Source: a virus
Lineage: Duplodnaviria > Heunggongvirae > Uroviricota > Caudoviricetes
IMG/VR virus record: IMGVR_UViG_2681813268_000014
Span: 1 to 6,873 of that record
Length of the DNA stretch: 6,873 nucleotides
Reading direction: 5' to 3' (one strand)
Shown here: positions 1-6,873 of the stretch, piece by piece
Layout: the number at the start of each line of letters is the position of its first letter
How positions within the stretch are numbered: the first letter of the stretch is position 1
Notes under the pieces: model-generated
Database searches by the model: none
Told to the model about the DNA's origin: nothing
What the model saw: only the letters and a program-made list of their open reading frames with translations
Translations under genes and position numbers: made by a program

Positions 1-1
1 T

Positions 2-148
2 AGTATTAAGACTATCACTTATTTAAGTGATACTGGTTGTCTGGAGATTCAGGGGGCCAGTCTACGGACATTTTCTGCCTGTGGACCAGGAAAGTGCACG
101 GGTGCTTTCCACTCCCATGAAGCCCGGCAATCCGCGCAGATACAGTAA
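2..148 (+). CDS. 3'-terminal fragment of an upstream phage gene (5' end outside window); function unknown
   Basis: Frame 2 is open from the window edge to TAA at 146-148 (...SACGPGKCTGAFHSHEARQSAQIQ*). Same orientation as and 36 bp upstream of the rusA-Q operon. Absent from the ORF track because it has no in-window start. Confidence 0.3.
   Translation, partial: SIKTITYLSDTGCLEIQGASLRTFSACGPGKCTGAFHSHEARQSAQIQ
13..32. repeat. Perfect 9-bp inverted repeat TATCACTTA-tt-TAAGTGATA (possible protein-binding palindrome)
   Basis: Read directly from sequence; the arms are exact reverse complements with a 2-bp spacer. The TATCAC half-site resembles lambdoid operator half-sites. Lies inside the putative upstream coding fragment. 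Confidence 0.35.
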
Positions 149-184
149 TAAACGAACTGACAGCAGTAAGATGGAGCGTTTCTT

Positions 185-442
185 TTGAACAACCAGACAA
201 TGACTTTTACCCCTGAACAATTGCGTAAACACGCGCAGGAAATGCTGCGTCATGCTGAACAACTCGAAAAAACGGGCATAACAAAAGACGCTATCCGTAA
301 AGATATGGTACCCGCGCTTCGGGAACTGATGCAGGCGAAGCATCGCGCACAGAAAGCAGTAGATGAGCTGGTGGACTGTGTGGCAGAGCTGGAAACCAGA
401 GTCGGAAAGTTTGAAAAACTGGTGCAGGAGGTGCTGCGCTGA
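185..442 (+). CDS. Hypothetical small phage protein (85 aa, charged, helix-rich), first gene of the rusA-Q operon
   Basis: ORF 185..442 with TTG start and GGAG 7 nt upstream (alternative ATG at 200). Stop TGA overlaps the rusA ATG (ATGA at 442-445 region), indicating translational coupling. Confidence 0.55.
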   Translation: MNNQTMTFTPEQLRKHAQEMLRHAEQLEKTGITKDAIRKDMVPALRELMQAKHRAQKAVDELVDCVAELETRVGKFEKLVQEVLR

Positions 443-816
443 TGCGCCATGAGTTTATTTTACCTTATCCGCCGACGGTGAATACTTACTGGCGACGTCG
501 TGACAACACATATTTTGTATCAAAAGCCGGTGAGCGTTATCGCCGGGATGTGGCGCTTATTGTCCGTCAGCAGCGACTGAAATTAAGCCTGTCCGGAAGA
601 CTGGCGATAAAGATTATTGCAGAGCCACCGGATAAGCGCCGTCGTGACCTGGACAATATCCTGAAAGCACCACTGGATGCACTGACACATGCGGGAGTGT
701 TAATGGACGATGAGCAGTTTGATGAAATCAATATCGTTCGTGGTCAGCCAGTATCTGGTGGACGTCTGGGGGTGAAGATTTACCCCATAATGCATGAAGA
801 GCAGGTCAAAAAATGA
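442..816 (+). CDS. rusA: RusA-family crossover junction endodeoxyribonuclease (Holliday junction resolvase)
   Basis: 124-aa product with the RusA signatures LPYPPTVNTYWRRR and DKRRRDLDNILKAPLDALTHAGVLMDDEQ, closely matching E. coli RusA (LPWPPSNNRYYR ... [27 protein letters not shown]) as recalled from memory. Conserved lambdoid position just upstream of Q. Confidence 0.9.
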   Translation: MRHEFILPYPPTVNTYWRRRDNTYFVSKAGERYRRDVALIVRQQRLKLSLSGRLAIKIIAEPPDKRRRDLDNILKAPLDALTHAGVLMDDEQFDEINIVRGQPVSGGRLGVKIYPIMHEEQVKK

Positions 817-1667
817 AACTGGAAGATTTACCGAAATACTACTCCCCAAAATCCCCTTGCCTGACCGATGCATCGGCCTCAACGTCAAAAGATGCGCTGA
901 GTATCACTGATGTGATGGCCGCGCAGGGCATGACACAGAATCGGGCTGAGATGGGGTTTTCTGCGTTCCTGGGGAAAATGGGCATCAGTATGAATGACAG
1001 GGCGCGGGCAACAGAATTACTGGCAGATTATGCACTCAGTCGGTGCGATCGTGTGGCGGCGTTGAGAAAACTTCCGGCAGAAATAAAACCGGTAGTGATG
1101 CGCATTATGGCTTCGTACGCTTTTGAGGATTATGCCCGCAGCGCAGCGAGTAAAAAGCAGTGCCCTTGTTGCTATGGGGAAAAATTTATTGAAAGCGTAG
1201 TTTTTACAAACAAGGTCCAGTATCCGGATGGTAAGCCGCCGGTATGGGCAAAGTGTACGAAAGGTGTGTATCCGTCTTACTGGGAAGAATGGAAAAAAGT
1301 CAGGGAGGTGGTAAAAGTTGCCTGTCCGGAGTGTGGCGGAAAGGGTGAGGTTTCCACCGCCTGTAAGGATTGCCGTGGGCGTGGTGTCGCCATTCATCGT
1401 GAAGAGTCGGTAAAACGTGGTATGCCTGTTATCAGAGACTGCCAGCGTTGTGGTGGTCGTGGCTATGAAAGACTACCATCAACGGAGGCATTTAATGCTA
1501 TATGCGAGGTGACAAACCAGATAACACGCGCGTCATGGGAAAAAACAGTTAAGAAATTCTATGATGCGCTGGTGACTCGGTTTGATATTGAAGAAGCATG
1601 GGCTGAGCGGCAGTTAAAAAAGGTAACTAGGTTGATTTTTCCGGAATCTGTGGTAAATTCGTCATAA
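813..1667 (+). CDS. Late-gene antitermination protein Q-like, large zinc-finger variant
   Basis: 284-aa ORF whose ATG overlaps the rusA stop (ATGA). Contains three DnaJ-like CxxCxGxG motifs (CPECGGKG, CKDCRGRG, CQRCGGRG) plus additional CxxC. Position between rusA and the pR'/tR'/tRNA block is the canonical Q position; family assignment rests on synteny and motifs, not a homology search. Confidence 0.65.
   Translation: MKLEDLPKYYSPKSPCLTDASASTSKDALSITDVMAAQGMTQNRAEMGFSAFLGKMGISMNDRARATELLADYALSRCDRVAALRKLPAEIKPVVMRIMASYAFEDYARSAASKKQCPCCYGEKFIESVVFTNKVQYPDGKPPVWAKCTKGVYPSYWEEWKKVREVVKVACPECGGKGEVSTACKDCRGRGVAIHREESVKRGMPVIRDCQRCGGRGYERLPSTEAFNAICEVTNQITRASWEKTVKKFYDALVTRFDIEEAWAERQLKKVTRLIFPESVVNSS
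1632..1659 (+). promoter_or_regulatory. Candidate late promoter pR' (-35 TTGATT, 16-bp spacer, -10 TAAATT) overlapping the 3' end of Q
   Basis: Sigma70-like hexamers read from sequence, predicted start near 1666-1668. Placement directly after Q and before an intrinsic terminator matches lambdoid pR'/qut architecture. Confidence 0.4.
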
Positions 1668-1731
1668 CTATGGGCGTTTTATGCCTGACGTTAGAAGAGT
1701 TTCTACAACCCGCCGCCGAGCGGGTTTTTTA
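1667..1731 (+). ncRNA. Short pR'-to-tR' terminated transcript (6S-like/StxS-like late leader RNA), predicted ~65 nt
   Basis: Inferred from the predicted pR' start and the intrinsic terminator at 1708-1733. Early-terminated pR' transcripts are known sRNAs in lambdoid and Stx phages. Ends not mapped. Confidence 0.3.
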
Positions 1732-1733
1732 TT
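1708..1733 (+). terminator. Rho-independent terminator tR' (stem ACCCGC/GCGGGT, 6-nt loop, T6 tract)
   Basis: GC-rich hairpin aACCCGCcgccgaGCGGGT followed by TTTTTTATT, read directly from sequence, ~45 bp downstream of the Q stop. Confidence 0.65.
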
Positions 1734-1769
1734 GCGGAATTAATTACGGACCGTTATTATTCTGCTCCC

Positions 1770-1845
1770 GGCCCTTTAGCTCAGTGGTGAGAGCGAGCGA
1801 CTCATAATCGCCAGGTCGCTGGTTCAAATCCAGCAAGGGCCACCA
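1770..1845 (+). tRNA. ileZ: tRNA-Ile2 (anticodon CAU, lysidine-type, reads AUA); phage-borne ileZ-like
   Basis: 76-nt cloverleaf folded by hand: acceptor GGCCCTT/AAGGGCC, D-stem GCTC/GAGC, anticodon loop CTCATAA, T-arm GCTGG-TTCAAAT-CCAGC, discriminator A, encoded CCA. Near-identical in architecture to E. coli ileX, including the C4-G69/C5-G68 acceptor pairs. Confidence 0.88.
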
Positions 1846-1945
1846 TCACAAACCGCCATTAGCTTATCAGGAAGAGCAGACGACACGATAACAGGGTTGT
1901 TGGTGCGGGGGCGGGTCCCCGATGGCGGTCCATTATCGGTATTCA

Positions 1946-2022
1946 GCGTTGTTAGCTCAGCCGGACAGAGCAATTGCCTTCTAAGCAATCGGTCACTGGT
2001 TCGAATCCAGTACAGCGCGCCA
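1946..2022 (+). tRNA. tRNA-Arg (anticodon UCU, reads AGA); phage-borne argN/argO-like
   Basis: 77-nt cloverleaf folded by hand: acceptor GCGTTGT/ACAGCGC (one G-U pair), D-stem GCTC/GAGC, anticodon stem ATTGC/GCAAT with loop CTTCTAA, T-arm ACTGG-TTCGAAT-CCAGT, discriminator G, encoded CCA. Confidence 0.85.
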
Positions 2023-2132
2023 TATTCATTCTTCCAGATTCCTTCCGGCAGAGCCTTATACTGAAATATACCTGGCTCAGGATATTGTTGAAAATATTTT
2101 ATGTTTGTCAAAAATAAAAGTTCTGTTAAGTA

Positions 2133-2486
2133 TTGATTGAGTGTTTGTTATACGGTCTAATGGTTTTTTCAGCATTAAATATTTATCATTCATATGGTGT
2201 GGGTAGAGTGAATATTGATGAGGCGTCGGGGTGTTTCATCCTTAGGCAGCGTATTGATATAGTCAATGCAGCACGAGCAAAGGCCTTCAGCCGTTTGACA
2301 GTTTTGTTCTGTACTCCTGATCGTCTTTCGGGAAGAGACGTTATTATTCTGAATAGTGATGCTATACAGAGGGTTTGCGATGAGTTCATGGTTGCTAATT
2401 CAGAATTATTTGCTCTTGTTCAGGAGTACAACAGAATAGCCAGGACCTGTGGTATGGATGAACTTCGGATTACTCATCTGGGGTAG
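2133..2486 (+). CDS. Hypothetical cargo protein (117 aa from TTG, ~108 aa from ATG at 2160), no recognisable family
   Basis: Longest ORF in the segment immediately downstream of the phage tRNAs, in late-transcript orientation. No strong Shine-Dalgarno sequence; no motif I recognise. Confidence 0.4.
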   Translation: MIECLLYGLMVFSALNIYHSYGVGRVNIDEASGCFILRQRIDIVNAARAKAFSRLTVLFCTPDRLSGRDVIILNSDAIQRVCDEFMVANSELFALVQEYNRIARTCGMDELRITHLG

Positions 2487-2589
2487 ATACATATCTGGAT
2501 TATCACCTGTTACGGTAAAAAGTGATTGCTTACTGTTTTTGTGAATGGCATTGCAGCAGCCGGATAATGTCAGTGCTGGCTGACGGTGT

Positions 2590-2597
2590 GCTGGTGG
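2590..2597 (+). other. Chi site (5'-GCTGGTGG-3')
   Basis: Exact octamer match read from sequence; the only Chi octamer I found on the + strand of this window. Confidence 0.6.
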
Positions 2598-2689
2598 CGG
2601 GTGTGGTGGTTGTTGCTTTCCCGTTGCTGAAAAAGAAAACGCCAGACTGTTAGCCGGGTATCAGTTAGCGGGAGAAATTTTTAAATACT

Positions 2690-2976
2690 TCACAATTCAG
2701 GCGGTTGACTGTTGTCTGGTTTGCGGGGAGTTTGTTAAAAGAAACTGGCATGGTGAATCCCCCTGTGCGGAGGGGCAATCAGCGAGTAGGTATATGGGAT
2801 AATCGCGGATTCAGGTGCTGGTACTGAATTCACCGGGAGGCACCCGGCATCATGCAATGGCACATAGCGCCACTCTCCAGCCCTCTCCGGAGGGGCTTTT
2901 CTGTGCCGGATACATCACAGTTTCTGGAACCTTAGGTACTACAGTATCAGTCAGGGTGCTATATTTTCAGATGTGA
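2690..2976 (+). repeat. Copy 1 of a duplicated structured element (candidate sRNA gene) ending in an intrinsic terminator
   Basis: 2690-2897 aligns to 4798-5006 with one substitution (T2850 vs C4958) and one 1-nt indel in a C-run. Homology resumes after a ~62-bp copy-1-specific insertion (2898-2959) through TATATT...TCAGATGTGA (to 2976). Nested hairpins are listed in the findings. Confidence 0.85.
2879..2902 (+). terminator. Intrinsic terminator at the 3' end of repeat copy 1 (AGCCCTC-tccg-GAGGGGCT + TTTTCT)
   Basis: GC-rich 7/8-bp hairpin with tetraloop followed by a U-tract on the + strand. Confidence 0.6.
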
Positions 2977-3129
2977 TGAAAGCCTGTCAGCAGGCAGGGC
3001 GTATCGGAAATGACCCAGTAGAGAAAACGTTGACTCAGATACCGGTGCTGAGTTACCGGGAAACCGGCATCACATGACCGCTATCCTGAGGTGTACTGGC
3101 AATAGCGGACACTACCATTTGTTCTTTTT

Positions 3130-3948
3130 TTAAGCAGCCATCTGATGATATTTTTCCCTGAAGGCTGCCGGGGAGATATTCCCCAGACGAGAGTGACGAC
3201 GCTGACGATTGTAGAAAATCTCAATGTATTCCCGTATTACTGAGATGGCTTCATCCCGGTTATTAAAACGATAGTGGCTCAGGCTCTCATTTTTCAGCGT
3301 TCCCCAGAAGCTTTCCATCGGAGCGTTGTCGTAACAGTTACCTTTACGCGACATTGATGTTTTCAGACCAGACTGCTCCTGTATGACCCGGTAATCGTAT
3401 GCGCAGTACTGTGAACCTCGATCAGAGTGGTGGATTAGCCCGGCAGGTGGGCGCTGGCTCCTGAGCGCCATAAACAGGGCTTTACCTGTCAGCTCTTTTG
3501 TCATGCGCTCTCCCATGGCGTAGCCGACAATTTCGCACGTATAAACATCTTTGATGCCAGCGAGGTACAACCATCCCTCCTGTGTGGCAACATACGTCAG
3601 GTCCGCCACCCAGACCTGATTTGGTGCTGTAGGAGCGAACGTCTGGTTCAGCAGATTTGGCGCAACTGGCAGATTGTGGTTCGAGTTCGTAGTCGCTCTG
3701 AACTTGCGTTTCTGCTTACAGCGTAGCCTTAGCTCCTTACGAAGACGTGCCAGTCGGTCACGACCAACGATGATGCCATTCTCTGCCAGCTCCGTCTGGA
3801 GCCGCCGGGTTCCATATGTTTCGCGAGTGCGGATATGTGCCACCTTAATCTCCAGTTTTAGCCGCTCATCACTTTGTTTTCTGTCTGAGGGTTCATGCTG
3901 TACCCAGTTGTAATAACCGCTCCTGGATACACCAAATACCTGACACAT
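3130..3948 (-). CDS. IS3-family transposase OrfB (DDE integrase-like catalytic domain), expressed as an OrfAB fusion by -1 frameshift
   Basis: 272-aa ORF from the first ATG; the same frame stays open upstream to the slippery site near 4029-4035. Contains characteristic IS3-family OrfB segments (HHSDRGSQY..., KGNCYDNAPMESFWGTLKNE). Confidence 0.9.
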   Translation of the reverse strand: MCQVFGVSRSGYYNWVQHEPSDRKQSDERLKLEIKVAHIRTRETYGTRRLQTELAENGIIVGRDRLARLRKELRLRCKQKRKFRATTNSNHNLPVAPNLLNQTFAPTAPNQVWVADLTYVATQEGWLYLAGIKDVYTCEIVGYAMGERMTKELTGKALFMALRSQRPPAGLIHHSDRGSQYCAYDYRVIQEQSGLKTSMSRKGNCYDNAPMESFWGTLKNESLSHYRFNNRDEAISVIREYIEIFYNRQRRHSRLGNISPAAFREKYHQMAA

Positions 3949-3983
3949 CGCTTCAATGGGAAATTGTTGTCGCCATTGTTCGA

Positions 3984-4286
3984 TTAACGCGTATTTTTCA
4001 GCGACTCCTGTGCAAAATACGCTGTTGCTTTTTTTAATATATCTCGCTCAAGTCGTGCTTCATTTAAAGCCTTACGCAGTTGCATAACTTCAGATTCCAG
4101 CTCAGCCACTGTGCGGGAGCCTGGTGTATTGAGCCCTTTTCTTGCGGCGGTAACCCATTGTCCTAAAGTGCCTTCAGGAAGAGATAATCGGGAAGCGCCT
4201 TCACTGATCGAAAGTTGATTTTCAGGAACCGTTTTGACGGCTTCGGCTTTAAACTCCGTAGAGTAACGTTGGGTTTTTCTGCTCAT
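3984..4286 (-). CDS. IS3-family transposase OrfA (helix-turn-helix / leucine-zipper DNA-binding protein)
   Basis: 100-aa ORF with AAGGAG Shine-Dalgarno 7 nt upstream of the ATG. Sequence MSRKTQRYSTEFKAEAV...LERDILKKATAYFAQESL is typical of IS3-group OrfA and closely matches what I recall of IS600 OrfA. Confidence 0.9.
   Translation of the reverse strand: MSRKTQRYSTEFKAEAVKTVPENQLSISEGASRLSLPEGTLGQWVTAARKGLNTPGSRTVAELESEVMQLRKALNEARLERDILKKATAYFAQESLKNTR
4029..4035 (-). other. Programmed -1 ribosomal frameshift site A_AAA_AAA linking orfA to orfB
   Basis: T7 run on the + strand equals A7 on the coding strand, positioned in the orfA zero frame as TTA-AAA-AAA-GCA (L-K-K-A). The orfB frame is exactly -1 relative to orfA (coordinate arithmetic from the stops at 3984 and 3130). 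Confidence 0.75.
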
Positions 4287-4797
4287 TATTGGCTCCTTCT
4301 GATGCCATTCTATTTCAGGAAGGAGTGTCCGTTAAACTCAGGCTACCTCACTCCCGTAAAGACGGGAGTCAAGTTCCCGCTCCGACATAACTGCGTGCAA
4401 TGGATTTTGAAGGAACCGTCAGCCCATTCCCCGGAGGCAAACATGGGCTGGCAAAAGTGTAGCGGTATTAGGCACAGCTATTTAGGAAAGAGGGACCATC
4501 TCCATCTCATTAAATGGACCACGCCAGACAATTCACTGTCATGCTGATGCTGCACTGTGGGGACAGAATCACTCATGATGACTTCGATAATCGACGACAT
4601 TATTATTTGGCCGAGCTTTTAGGTCATATCTCAAATCGTTTGCCTAATATTGCTCCATTTTTTAATAAAAAATCAATCATTTTTGAATCTTTGCTTTTCA
4701 TTGCATTGTCAAGCATAGTGTCCCCACTATTTGCTTTTTGAAATTTTTTGTTTACATCAACCAATCCATTATTGATAAAATATTCTAGCACTTTATA

Positions 4798-5032
4798 TCA
4801 CAATTCAGGCGGTTGACTGTTGTCTGGTTTGCGGGGAGTTTGTTAAAAGAAACTGGCATGGTGAATCCCCCTGTGCGGAGGGGCAATCAGCGAGTAGGTA
4901 TATGGGATAATCGCGGATTCAGGTGCTGGTACTGAATTCACCGGGAGGCACCCGGCACCATGCAATGGCACATAGCGCCACTCTCCAGCCCCTCTCCGGA
5001 GGGGCTGTTTATATTGATTTTGTCAGATGTGA
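4798..5032 (+). repeat. Copy 2 of the duplicated structured element (candidate sRNA gene) ending in an intrinsic terminator
   Basis: Aligns to copy 1 at ~99% identity over ~209 bp with a tail match (TATATT...AGATGTGA). A promoter-like TTGATA-N16-TATATC lies at 4772-4799, immediately upstream. Confidence 0.85.
4987..5015 (+). terminator. Intrinsic terminator at the 3' end of repeat copy 2 (AGCCCCTC-tccg-GAGGGGCT + GTTTATATT)
   Basis: Perfect 8-bp GC-rich hairpin with tetraloop followed by a T-rich tract, read from sequence. Confidence 0.55.
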
Positions 5033-5041
5033 GTAAACTCC

Positions 5042-5377
5042 TTATGGACTTTGTTGTTTTAGCCCATAAGGACATATTTGCAGAGTGCAACGGTTATTAA
5101 AGCATTCATTCAATACGTTATCTGTATTTGTAGGGCATTCCTGGCTGTTTTTGATTAAATTCCAGAATGTTTTATTGAATGGTACTACGTTGTAAATGGT
5201 TACAGGTAGCACTTTGTTATTGAGCATGATGCCTGTGTGAGTCAGTGTAAATATACTTTCAGGAGGTAAGAAAGCATCCGATTGATACCAGATTATTAAT
5301 TTTATTTTACTCCATATGACTGAAAAAGATATTCCGCATGATGGCTGGATAACTGTATCAATCACAATCCACTTCAT
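5042..5377 (-). CDS. Hypothetical Cys-rich small protein (111 aa) encoded antisense to the late operon in AT-rich cargo DNA
   Basis: ATG preceded by AAGGAA Shine-Dalgarno at 5-6 nt spacing (coding strand AAACAAGGAAACTAA-ATG). Six cysteines, six AUA codons. Ends 5 bp from the repeat-2 homology tail and 27 bp from its terminator. No family recognised. Confidence 0.4.
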
Positions 5378-5637
5378 TTAGTTTCCTTGTTTATGCCTTG
5401 CTGGTGATGTTCTGAAAAGTATAAATGATATTTTTGATTGTAAACCATAGAGCAGAATTATTTTTCTGATGTTGTTTATTGTTTATTTAAATGCAGGGTG
5501 GTTTATATCTCGTCTTGTAGTTTATCCATGCATATCTGCTTGATGATGAGGTTTTTATTTAAGGTATGGTTTTGTGTTTTTTCTGTATTACATGTCAGGT
5601 ATTTTAAAGAATCATTTTTCAGATGGTGGAAAGAACC

Positions 5638-6873
5638 ATGGCATTTAAACACTATGATGTTGTCAGGGCGGCGTCGCCGTCAGATCTTGCGGAAAAGCTG
5701 ACACATAAACTGAAAGAGGGCTGGCAGCCGTTTGGTAGTCCGGTGGCCATAACCCCTTATACCCTGATGCAGGCGATTGCAGCAGAAGGTGATGTGGTCG
5801 TCAGTGGTGCAACTGAGCCGGAGTGGTACTACGTCATCGTACTGGCCGGGCAGTCCAATGCCATGGCTTACGGTGAAGGGCTTCCGCTTCCGGATTCATA
5901 CGATGCGCCCCATCCGCGCATTAAGCAACTGGCCCGTCGTAACACAGTGACTCCCGGTGGTGAAGTATGCGTATTTAACGACATCATTCCTGCTGACCAT
6001 TGTCTGCATGATGTTCAGGATATGAGTACGATTAACCATCCCCGGGCTGACCTGAGCAAAGGGCAGTACGGCTGTGTCGGACAGGGCTTACATATTGCCA
6101 AAAAACTGCTTCCGTATATCCCTAATAATGCGGGGATCCTGCTGGTACCATGCTGTCGTGGTGGTTCGGCATTCACCCAGGGCACGGAGGGGACATTCAG
6201 CGAGTCCACGGGAGCCAGTCAGGATTCGGCTCGCTGGGGAGTGGGTAAGCCGTTATATCAGGATCTGCTTTTCCGCACGAAGGCAGCATTGCAGAAAAAC
6301 CCGAAAAACGTTTTGCTGGCGATATGCTGGATGCAGGGGGAATTCGATATGACGAATGCCAGTTACGCCCAGCAGCCAGCAGCATTTCTTGCAATGGTAC
6401 AGCAGTTCCGTGCTGACCTTGCCGGGCTGGCAGCGCAGTGTCACGGTGGAAGTCCGGCATCAGTCCCCTGGATTTGTGGCGACACGACATACGCGTGGAA
6501 ACAAGAACACGGTACGCAATATGAAGTGGTATATGGTGCATATAAAGGTAAAGAATCCCAGCAGATTTATTTTGTTCCCTTTATGACCGATGGTAGCGGA
6601 GTTAATACACCGACAAACAACCCGTCAGAAGATCCTGATATTGCCGGGTCTGGTTATTACGGTTCGGCATCCCGAACGAACAAAAACTGGGTATCATCAA
6701 ATCGCCCGACGCATTTCAGCTCATGGGCGCGTCGTGGCATTATTCCCGATCGTATGGCAACTGCTATTCTGAACGTAGCCGGTCGCACCTTAGCCTTCAT
6801 TAGTGGTAAGGCACCGGAAATCAAACCCTCGCCCGGCGGCGACACGCCATCGGGGCCGTCTGAAGATGCATCC
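5638..6873 (+). CDS. nanS-p: Prophage sialate O-acetylesterase (NanS-p-like; N-terminal DUF1737-like region plus SGNH/SASA esterase domain), 3' end beyond window
   Basis: Uninterrupted 412-codon frame from ATG 5638 to the window edge; missing from the ORF track because there is no in-window stop. Contains the esterase motif GQSNAMAYGEG. Occupies the conserved position between the stx/cargo slot and the lysis genes in Stx-type prophages. Confidence 0.82.
   Translation, partial: MAFKHYDVVRAASPSDLAEKLTHKLKEGWQPFGSPVAITPYTLMQAIAAEGDVVVSGATEPEWYYVIVLAGQSNAMAYGEGLPLPDSYDAPHPRIKQLARRNTVTPGGEVCVFNDIIPADHCLHDVQDMSTINHPRADLSKGQYGCVGQGLHIAKKLLPYIPNNAGILLVPCCRGGSAFTQGTEGTFSESTGASQDSARWGVGKPLYQDLLFRTKAALQKNPKNVLLAICWMQGEFDMTNASYAQQPAAFLAMVQQFRADLAGLAAQCHGGSPASVPWICGDTTYAWKQEHGTQYEVVYGAYKGKESQQIYFVPFMTDGSGVNTPTNNPSEDPDIAGSGYYGSASRTNKNWVSSNRPTHFSSWARRGIIPDRMATAILNVAGRTLAFISGKAPEIKPSPGGDTPSGPSEDAS

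Follow-up and report, generated by a model that had tools for sequence, protein, structure and literature searches.

The toxin position of a Shiga toxin phage-type late region: known passengers and a secondary IS600/pINV rearrangement in an stx-negative lambdoid prophage

In Shiga toxin (Stx)-converting phages, the genes stxA and stxB lie downstream of the late antiterminator gene Q, between a block of tRNA genes and nanS-p. What is carried at this position when the late layout is kept and the toxin genes are missing? The question is raised by a 6,873-nucleotide stretch of viral DNA (Caudoviricetes; positions 1 to 6,873 of IMG/VR record IMGVR_UViG_2681813268_000014), which is called the window hereafter. 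An initial annotation of its sequence had described a single toxin slot, reaching from the tRNAs to nanS-p and filled with uncharacterised, possibly new cargo. Our analyses indicate that the window is very probably the Q-to-nanS-p late-control region of an stx-negative lambdoid prophage from the Shigella/E. coli group, which carries known passengers and a secondary rearrangement involving the insertion sequence (IS) IS600 and the virulence plasmid pINV. The locus type, the small RNA (sRNA), the tRNAs and the main protein passenger have already been described, and the arrangement occurs widely among E. coli and Shigella genomes. Two minor points, concerning the open reading frame (ORF) ORF117 with its neighbour DUF3927 and the boundary of the sRNA STnc100, are treated with more reserve.

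Late region layout and absence of stx

The elements of the window follow one another in the order of Stx phages, namely Q, the tR' terminator, tRNA-Ile2(CAU), tRNA-Arg(UCU), non-toxin DNA and nanS-p, and all those listed in the initial annotation (Q, pR'/tR', two tRNAs, ORF117, a repeat, IS600, AT-rich DNA, ORF111 and nanS-p) were recovered at or close to where it had placed them. Its assignment to the late layout of Stx phages was also borne out: phages 933W (NC_000924) and Stx2_EH1910 (LC567834) are homologous in order, and the latter aligns with the window at 87.5% identity over the matched parts. Both have, like the window, Q, pR'/tR', the ileZ-argN-argO block, a payload, STnc100 and nanS-p, with S-R-Rz coming next. 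The order in Stx2_EH1910 is rusA, a Q of the window type, a methylase gene, three tRNAs, stx2AB, STnc100, iraM (minus strand) and yjhS; in 933W, argO is followed by stx2AB, STnc100 (RF02076, 208 bits, 75 nt after stx2B), AsxR and nanS-p. The two phages differ from the window in carrying stx2AB where the window has ORF117 and DUF3927, and in keeping all three tRNAs intact, while 933W differs further by its Q family and by the presence of AsxR instead of iraL after STnc100. On sequence grounds, the module family is one shared with Stx phages, and the passenger set is a different and already known one.

The absence of toxin subunits reported by the initial annotation was confirmed. A tblastn search of the window with StxA2 and StxB2 of 933W returned only chance fragments of 6-18 aa, with E values of at least 1.1, and no Stx-like ORF occurs in the ORF list of the window. 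As compared with an Stx-converting phage, the order of Q, terminator, ileZ/argN/argO block and nanS-p is present, with argN as a relic only, and stxA and stxB are missing between the tRNA block and nanS-p. No different conserved late-region layout was recognized for this prophage, and none of the ORFs in the slot is a fragment of a structural gene.

The hope that the cargo would be new was for the most part not sustained. The same cargo, without IS600, is found in the lambdoid prophage of the potB island of E. coli CFT073 (PMC4045071). This prophage shares with the window the Q type, ileZ, argO, DNA homologous to ORF117, the DUF3927 protein (WP_000562553.1), STnc100 and an identical IraL (WP_000871291.1), as well as, in the manner of the window's module, a DUF1737/nanS-p start, which is followed by holin and lysis genes. 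Its late region reads Q, IS200C, three tRNAs, DUF3927, STnc100, IraL, DUF1737 and holin, and nucleotide identity to the window amounts to 96-98% over the shared parts. It differs in having an intact argN, and so three tRNAs, IS200C after Q, a truncated nanS-p and a single STnc100, and in lacking both IS600 and the fragment of the pINV gene ospC4 that is described below.

The stx position proper

The slot that had been drawn from the tRNAs to nanS-p proved to be split into sub-slots by conserved landmarks. Since the annotations of 933W and Stx2_EH1910 both put stx2AB between argO and STnc100, the toxin position proper is this interval, which corresponds to 2036-2689 in the window and has only ORF117 and DUF3927 inside. 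For annotation purposes, the stx position is best understood as this short argO-STnc100 interval.

ORF117 (2133-2486, plus strand), with a conserved coding core of 92 aa starting from the GTG at 2208 (ORF92; TTG 2133 and ATG 2160 are further candidate start codons), matched phrog_2873, a PHROGs family of unknown function (E = 3.8e-70), and no Pfam, NCBIfam or PADLOC family; its homologues come from E. coli and Shigella only. Comparison with a homologue of equal length and about 60% identity, in L010, gave a ratio of nonsynonymous to synonymous substitution rates (dN/dS) of 0.25 over 92 codons, with no indels, which argues that ORF117 is a real coding gene. Its AlphaFold2 model (mean predicted local distance difference test score, pLDDT, 71.5) consists of two long helices forming a hairpin, for which Foldseek found no match at E <= 0.001 in PDB and BFVD. 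TraM-like and efflux-adaptor hairpins also matched the model; no meaning was drawn from them, the shape being that of a generic helical hairpin. The second gene (2522-2653, plus strand) encodes a small protein of 43 aa with one hydrophobic helix, predicted to lie in the membrane. It belongs to DUF3927 (PF13064, 95.6 bits against a gathering score of 25) and to phrog_1470, labelled 'TciB-like', and is annotated as WP_000562553.1 in L001, L019 and CFT073. ORF92 and DUF3927 recur at the stx position in several other E. coli genomes.

A homologue of ORF117 with 57-60% identity was also observed in the same slot of other prophages (L010 3969-5062; L006 2933-5360). In L010 it stands immediately downstream of a gene for a 241-aa AraC-family (HTH_18) regulator, and in L006 and L007-L009 an IS3-family element is inserted between the regulator gene and the homologue. 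This vicinity hints at a functional pairing.

Our best guess is that ORF117, through its 92-aa core, and DUF3927 would be a small-protein moron expressed in lysogeny. That the pair is a functional and host-relevant two-gene moron (acting for instance in phage or colicin exclusion, or on the envelope), and so a true alternative payload, is a possibility to be entertained with some reserve. The two genes occupy the exact stx interval, the dN/dS value of ORF117 points to constraint, DUF3927 is conserved as a Pfam family, is predicted to have a single membrane helix and bears the full PHROG label 'TciB-like inhibition of cell division or resistance to colicin', and the diverged homologue of ORF92 occurs in the same slot beside an AraC-family regulator. 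Profile searches, however, revealed no match of the pair to toxin, defence or enzyme families: ORF117, ORF111 and DUF3927 all remained without a PADLOC match (E up to 0.1) or a toxin family in Pfam and NCBIfam. Furthermore, the fold of ORF117 is a generic one, the gene is left unannotated by PGAP in RefSeq relatives, a literature search on DUF3927/TciB returned nothing relevant, and the pair is so widespread among commensal and pathogenic E. coli that it would not be new even if functional. The description of the slot contents as uncharacterised accordingly holds for ORF117, which gained a phrog_2873 assignment only, and for DUF3927; it does not hold for ORF111, which belongs to the IraM/IraL family, for the RNA element, which is STnc100, or for the first AT-rich stretch, which comes from ospC4.

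The same interval bears on the idea that the window derives from an Stx phage that recently lost stxAB through an IS600-mediated deletion or replacement, its present contents being debris. IS600 flanks the stx region in S. dysenteriae type 1, and the window does hold an IS600 without target duplication, together with rearranged DNA, between the tRNAs and nanS-p. This IS600 is nevertheless located downstream of STnc100, outside the stx position. In CFT073, the stretch that begins with the tRNA block and ends with STnc100 copy 1 (1728-2900 in the window) is 97% identical and free of IS600, and E. coli elppa4 and S. sonnei are likewise devoid of IS600 in the tRNA-STnc100 interval. No Stx-like remnant was detected at E < 1, and ORF117 is under purifying selection. 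Recent toxin loss is very unlikely in view of these data, and largely refuted.

Two copies of STnc100

The duplicated RNA-like element of the initial annotation is identified by its Rfam matches as STnc100 (RF02076, gathering score 47), both copies spanning model positions 1-206 of 206. The module of copy 1 covers 2690-2908 (Rfam match 2719-2908, 122.5 bits; terminator hairpin 2879-2897) and that of copy 2 covers 4798-5016 (Rfam match 4827-5016, 132.4 bits; a stronger terminator at 4986-5007), both on the plus strand. They form a direct repeat (2690-2883 and 4798-4991) that is 99% identical over 194 nt. STnc100 would be a structured sRNA of about 200 nt, with a terminator hairpin at its end, and would mark the right edge of the stx position. 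This family of prophage sRNAs has PasD as a relative (bioRxiv 10.64898/2026.05.13.724894), and the copies of the window sit at the family's usual place, downstream of a payload and upstream of the esterase gene. In O157 strains, STnc100 was predicted directly downstream of stx2B, where it is overlapped by the Hfq-binding sRNA EcOnc27/sRNA103 (PMC12711010), and it has been detected in outer membrane vesicles by reverse transcription PCR (PMC12370729).

Two diverged copies of the family, about 80% identical, occur naturally in tandem between the tRNAs and nanS-p of several prophages (L004 3850-4040 and 4318-4527; L019 4820-5010 and 5288-5497; also L006 and L010). Unlike these natural pairs, the copies of the window are near-identical and stand 2.1 kb apart as a result of rearrangement. 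A third match at 2947-3135 (21.8 bits, E = 0.16), which spans the end of IS600, was attributed to chance because the second STnc100 of the intact allele lies past the break point. In relatives, PGAP also reports a pseudogene, 'hypothetical protein, partial', opposite STnc100 (L001 5308-5433), whose counterparts in the window are at 2735-2863 and 4843-4971 on the minus strand; it probably represents a false gene call on top of the sRNA. In RefSeq pipelines, ORF117 and STnc100 go without annotation, or the latter is overlaid with such a partial ORF.

The conserved block of STnc100 starts at the same nucleotide, TCACAATTCAG, in eight contexts, among which are those after stx2B, after tRNAs and after ORF92. 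The junction of copy 2 with ospC4 DNA, between 4797 and 4798, coincides exactly with this start, and no microhomology is present between the ospC4 DNA and the copy. A degenerate TTAAAT-like motif, a candidate -10 box, lies 3-9 nt upstream of TCACAATTCAG in most natural contexts and is lost in copy 2, whose native upstream 12 nt are replaced by ospC4 DNA. The simplest reading is that the edge represents the start of the transcribed RNA, and that its coincidence with the ospC4 junction is a matter of chance or selection. A recombination hotspot at the left edge of STnc100, where foreign payloads would attach, appears improbable; if it existed, STnc100 and the tRNA block would be two anchors making the stx position a site of cargo exchange.

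Probable origin of the IS600/pINV rearrangement

The part of the window that is specific to it is a scramble of 2.1 kb, which adds 2108 bp relative to single-STnc100 relatives and comprises three parts. The first (2909-3086, unannotated) is the DNA that follows STnc100 in prophages of the ATCC 11775 / 2D type, here cut by IS600. It is 99.5% identical to sequences of 348 E. coli genomes and contiguous with STnc100 in L004 and L019. The order of the left arm, STnc100 and then this sequence, is natural in E. coli 2D and ATCC 11775, and strain 2D, which has this allele, also carries ORF117 and DUF3927 upstream.

The second part is a copy of IS600 (IS3 family; 3087-4350, minus strand). Its assignment relies on a length of 1264 bp, terminal inverted repeats starting with TG, and orfA (3984-4286) and orfB (3130-3948) with helix-turn-helix (HTH_Tnp_1) and DDE (rve) domains; annotated IS600 copies are 98.2-98.4% identical. 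The 3-bp target-site duplication is not present, the flanks being TCC and CTC. Altogether, 86 informative sites distinguish the chromosomal IS600 of S. sonnei from the IS copy that neighbours ospC4 on pINV, and in the window these are, in order, 65 of the S. sonnei chromosomal type, 13 of the pINV type, 2 of the sonnei type and 6 of the pINV type. The element is thereby a mosaic with one clean switch at 4012-4052, its left three quarters being of S. sonnei chromosomal type and its right quarter of pINV type. We take this switch to show directly that two IS copies recombined homologously, and a crossover at 4012-4052 accounts for the missing target duplication.

The third part (4351-4797, 447 bp, minus strand) is derived from pINV. 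It is 100% identical to pINV of enteroinvasive E. coli and S. sonnei, in which an IS600-like copy adjoins the same base, and it consists of 273 bp from downstream of ospC4 and of the last 174 nt of this gene (4624-4797), which codes for a type III effector of the OspC family. These 174 nt encode the ankyrin-repeat C-terminus (PF06128 Shigella_OspC, E = 8e-26, profile positions 241-292 of 292). They are a dead remnant: the full gene has about 485 codons and an N-terminal catalytic region, and only these last 174 nt remain. Of the AT-rich stretches of the window (4500-4800 and 5100-5640), the first corresponds to this fragment and the second to iraL with its upstream region. A plasmid origin of the whole window was considered and rejected, no plasmid covering more than the IS600 and ospC4 part.

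On either side of the scramble, the arms have different closest relatives. In E. coli elppa4, which has a single STnc100 and no IS600, one and the same copy is matched by both 439-2900 and 4798-6873 of the window. Identity of the left arm (1-2900) amounts to 99.9% with S. sonnei and 96.6% with elppa4, whereas the right arm is 99.86% identical to elppa4 and 99.2% to S. sonnei; these values suggest that two prophage late regions are combined in the window. S. sonnei chromosomes with the exact Q protein have the single-copy arrangement. In these chromosomes (L012-L017), an IS21-family element lies immediately upstream of the same prophage remnant, whose nanS-p breaks off after 57 codons where another IS600 interrupts it, and an ipaH (LRR_TTSS/NEL) gene is found about 7 kb upstream.

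According to the account that we favour, an IS600 located downstream of STnc100 in one prophage and the IS600-like copy that neighbours ospC4 on pINV underwent homologous recombination at 4012-4052. The crossover brought in 447 bp of pINV DNA, and an illegitimate joint at 4797/4798 links this DNA to the STnc100-iraL-nanS-p arm of another prophage with different relationships. Such a rearrangement explains at once why STnc100 is present twice, why no target-site duplication is seen and where the first AT-rich stretch comes from. IS-mediated recombination between pINV and the chromosome is known from work on the plasticity of this plasmid, and the present case resembles it in that a crossover within an IS600-family copy joins prophage DNA to ospC4-adjacent pINV DNA. 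It differs in that the window keeps a scar, 447 bp ending illegitimately inside ospC4, and not an integrated plasmid. The IS600 mosaic, which records at a single locus that pINV and the chromosome have recombined, is of modest interest for the plasticity of Shigella genomes.

The geometry of the repeat also brings to mind a duplication in place within one prophage, for example through integration at STnc100 of a circle carrying STnc100, its downstream DNA, IS600 and the ospC4 scrap. Direct repeats that are 99% identical over 194 nt and lie 2108 bp apart are what a Campbell-type event would leave. The nearest relatives of the two arms should then not differ as they do (99.9% versus 99.2% for S. 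sonnei, 96.6% versus 99.86% for elppa4). Moreover, the DNA after copy 1 is the ATCC 11775 / 2D slot allele, unlike the iraL allele after copy 2, and no mechanism is evident that would close a circle at a site internal to ospC4. Duplication in place is an unlikely explanation, although it retains some weight, and the union of two prophage late regions is preferred.

Several points weigh against the overall interpretation. The composite rests on a single sequence, and there is a small probability that it is an assembly artefact, in which repeated IS600 and STnc100 copies misled the assembler so that two loci and a plasmid fragment were stitched together. Shigella genomes harbour many IS600 copies, a mosaic of two copy types could also be obtained from collapsed or mis-polished repeats, and neither junction (4783-4812 and 3070-3099) was found in GTDB species representatives, JGI metagenomes and the other collections searched. 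As these collections contain almost no Shigella chromosomes, however, this absence is weak evidence; an identity look-up with the 55-aa ORF of the ospC4 tail yielded only a pINV-type contig ending inside ospC4, without the junction. The joint at 4797/4798 connects ospC4 DNA that is unique with the STnc100 module, the two share no repeat that could mislead an assembler, and the mosaic displays one clean switch instead of scattered mixed sites. Beyond the question of assembly, the promoter assignments (pR', sRNA and iraL) rest on analogy, the function of STnc100 is unsettled in the literature, and ORF117 and DUF3927 obtained no functional assignment from Pfam, NCBIfam, PHROGs, PADLOC and fold searches.

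ORF111 encodes the anti-adaptor IraL

ORF111 is iraL (5042-5377, minus strand), whose product is an RssB anti-adaptor of the IraM/IraL family and is 100% identical to the CFT073 protein WP_000871291.1. It scored 162 bits against NF007393 (IraM subfamily, cut-off 121), is 59.5% identical to K-12 IraM and matches the IraM chain of PDB 8twd (E = 9e-32). Exactly this protein is listed for 34,862 blocks of the assembly collection, with the same gene context in all 10 matches listed, and is in this respect, too, no new cargo.

In CFT073, IraL (formerly ycgW, potB island) binds RssB and stabilises RpoS in the logarithmic phase (Hryckowian et al. 2014, PMC4045071). The gene has its own mapped promoter and transcription start upstream, at least 96% conserved among iraL strains, and is enriched in uropathogenic E. 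coli and Shigella (PMC4045071). RssB binding and RpoS stabilisation by IraL of the window are carried over from the identical CFT073 protein: iraL, on the opposite strand and under its own promoter, would give rise to an anti-adaptor that binds RssB and stabilises RpoS.

As judged from the landmarks, ORF111 belongs to a second slot, which extends from STnc100 to nanS-p and is separate from the stx position. An iraM-family gene was also noticed between STnc100 and yjhS in the Stx2a phage Stx2_EH1910 (L025 5051-5374). Its presence in a bona fide Stx2a phage indicates that an RpoS-stabilising anti-adaptor and the toxin can travel together; for annotation, iraL/iraM should be considered to have a slot of its own, able to coexist with stx2.

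The tRNA block and the relic of argN

The tRNA block of the window (1731-2035) aligns end to end with the three-tRNA blocks of ATCC 11775, CFT073 and 933W, the spacer between its two tRNAs corresponding to argN. ARAGORN and the Rfam tRNA model called two tRNAs only, in agreement with the initial annotation. The first is tRNA-Ile2 (1770-1845, plus strand, anticodon CAU, 72.5 bits), the equivalent of ileZ, which is invariant relative to 933W ileZ in the alignment and bears the PGAP label tRNA-Ile in relatives. The second is tRNA-Arg (1946-2022, plus strand, anticodon UCU, 68 bits), which aligns with 933W argO and is its equivalent. These two genes would provide the tRNAs that read the rare codons AUA and AGA.

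The loss of one tRNA in the 100-bp spacer (1846-1945), as suspected initially, was thus substantiated, but the claim that no cloverleaf is left was not: alignment with argN of 933W, ATCC 11775 and CFT073 delimits a cloverleaf-like relic at 1853-1932 (plus strand). It retains the 7-bp acceptor stem, the D-arm, the 5-bp T-stem, the discriminator base and CCA. Its anticodon arm is swapped for a 7-bp stem with a 3-nt loop, and its T-loop is changed from TTCGAGT to GCGGGT. Neither ARAGORN nor the Rfam tRNA model (E up to 1) calls it a tRNA.

This 100-nt spacer variant was detected in 1,827 of 5,426 complete E. coli genomes and is unannotated in all matches listed. Variants of the relic have 2, 5 or 10 G in a poly-G run within the former T-stem, which break this stem, as well as uncompensated substitutions, a pattern that argues for a decaying pseudogene rather than a selected structure. 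From these comparisons, argN appears to have been lost by decay in place, leaving a pseudo-tRNA. A functional odd tRNA was rejected, as the relic cannot be folded with a 7-nt anticodon loop and its variants do not preserve the structure. The very common 'two-tRNA' variant should be annotated as three genes, of which argN is decayed; a literature search on ileZ/argN/argO gave no relevant match.

Transcription signals and flanking genes

The candidate pR' (1632-1659, plus strand) was read by eye as TTGATT-16-TAAATT with TG before the -10 box, and overlaps the end of Q. It scores below the threshold of the consensus promoter scan, and so is unlisted there; we infer its role from a position that matches the annotated pR' of 933W. 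A tR'-like intrinsic terminator follows at 1707-1733 (plus strand), with a hairpin at 1707-1726 that has a 7-bp G+C-rich stem and precedes the T-run TTTTTATT. A weak Rfam Trp_leader match at 1627-1733 was dismissed as being the tR' hairpin itself. By analogy with lambda and 933W, pR' transcripts would end at tR' in the lysogen and the passengers would be expressed independently, and upon induction Q-modified polymerase would traverse the passengers into nanS-p and the lysis genes.

On the right, a divergent AT-rich intergenic region (5378-5637, 30% GC) would hold the iraL promoter, placed by homology, and the upstream region of nanS-p. The nanS-p gene (5638-6873, plus strand) encodes a SASA-family sialate O-acetylesterase with a DUF1737 N-terminus (PF08410 and PF03629); its first 412 codons are present, with no stop, and it continues past the end of the window. 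It is 99.86% identical to nanS-p of L001, where it is annotated as a SASA family carbohydrate esterase.

On the left, a gene for the RusA Holliday-junction resolvase (442-816, plus strand; PF05866, 61 bits), annotated as RusA in the relatives L001, L002 and L025, precedes Q (813-1667, plus strand; PF03589, 184 bits), a quuQ-like late antiterminator. The exact Q protein is also encoded by S. sonnei chromosomes, including that of 53G (HE616528). It has 284 aa in the window and in S. sonnei, as against 273 aa (822 bp) annotated in E. coli relatives; the difference lies at the 3' end of the gene, the longer version of which overlaps the candidate pR'.

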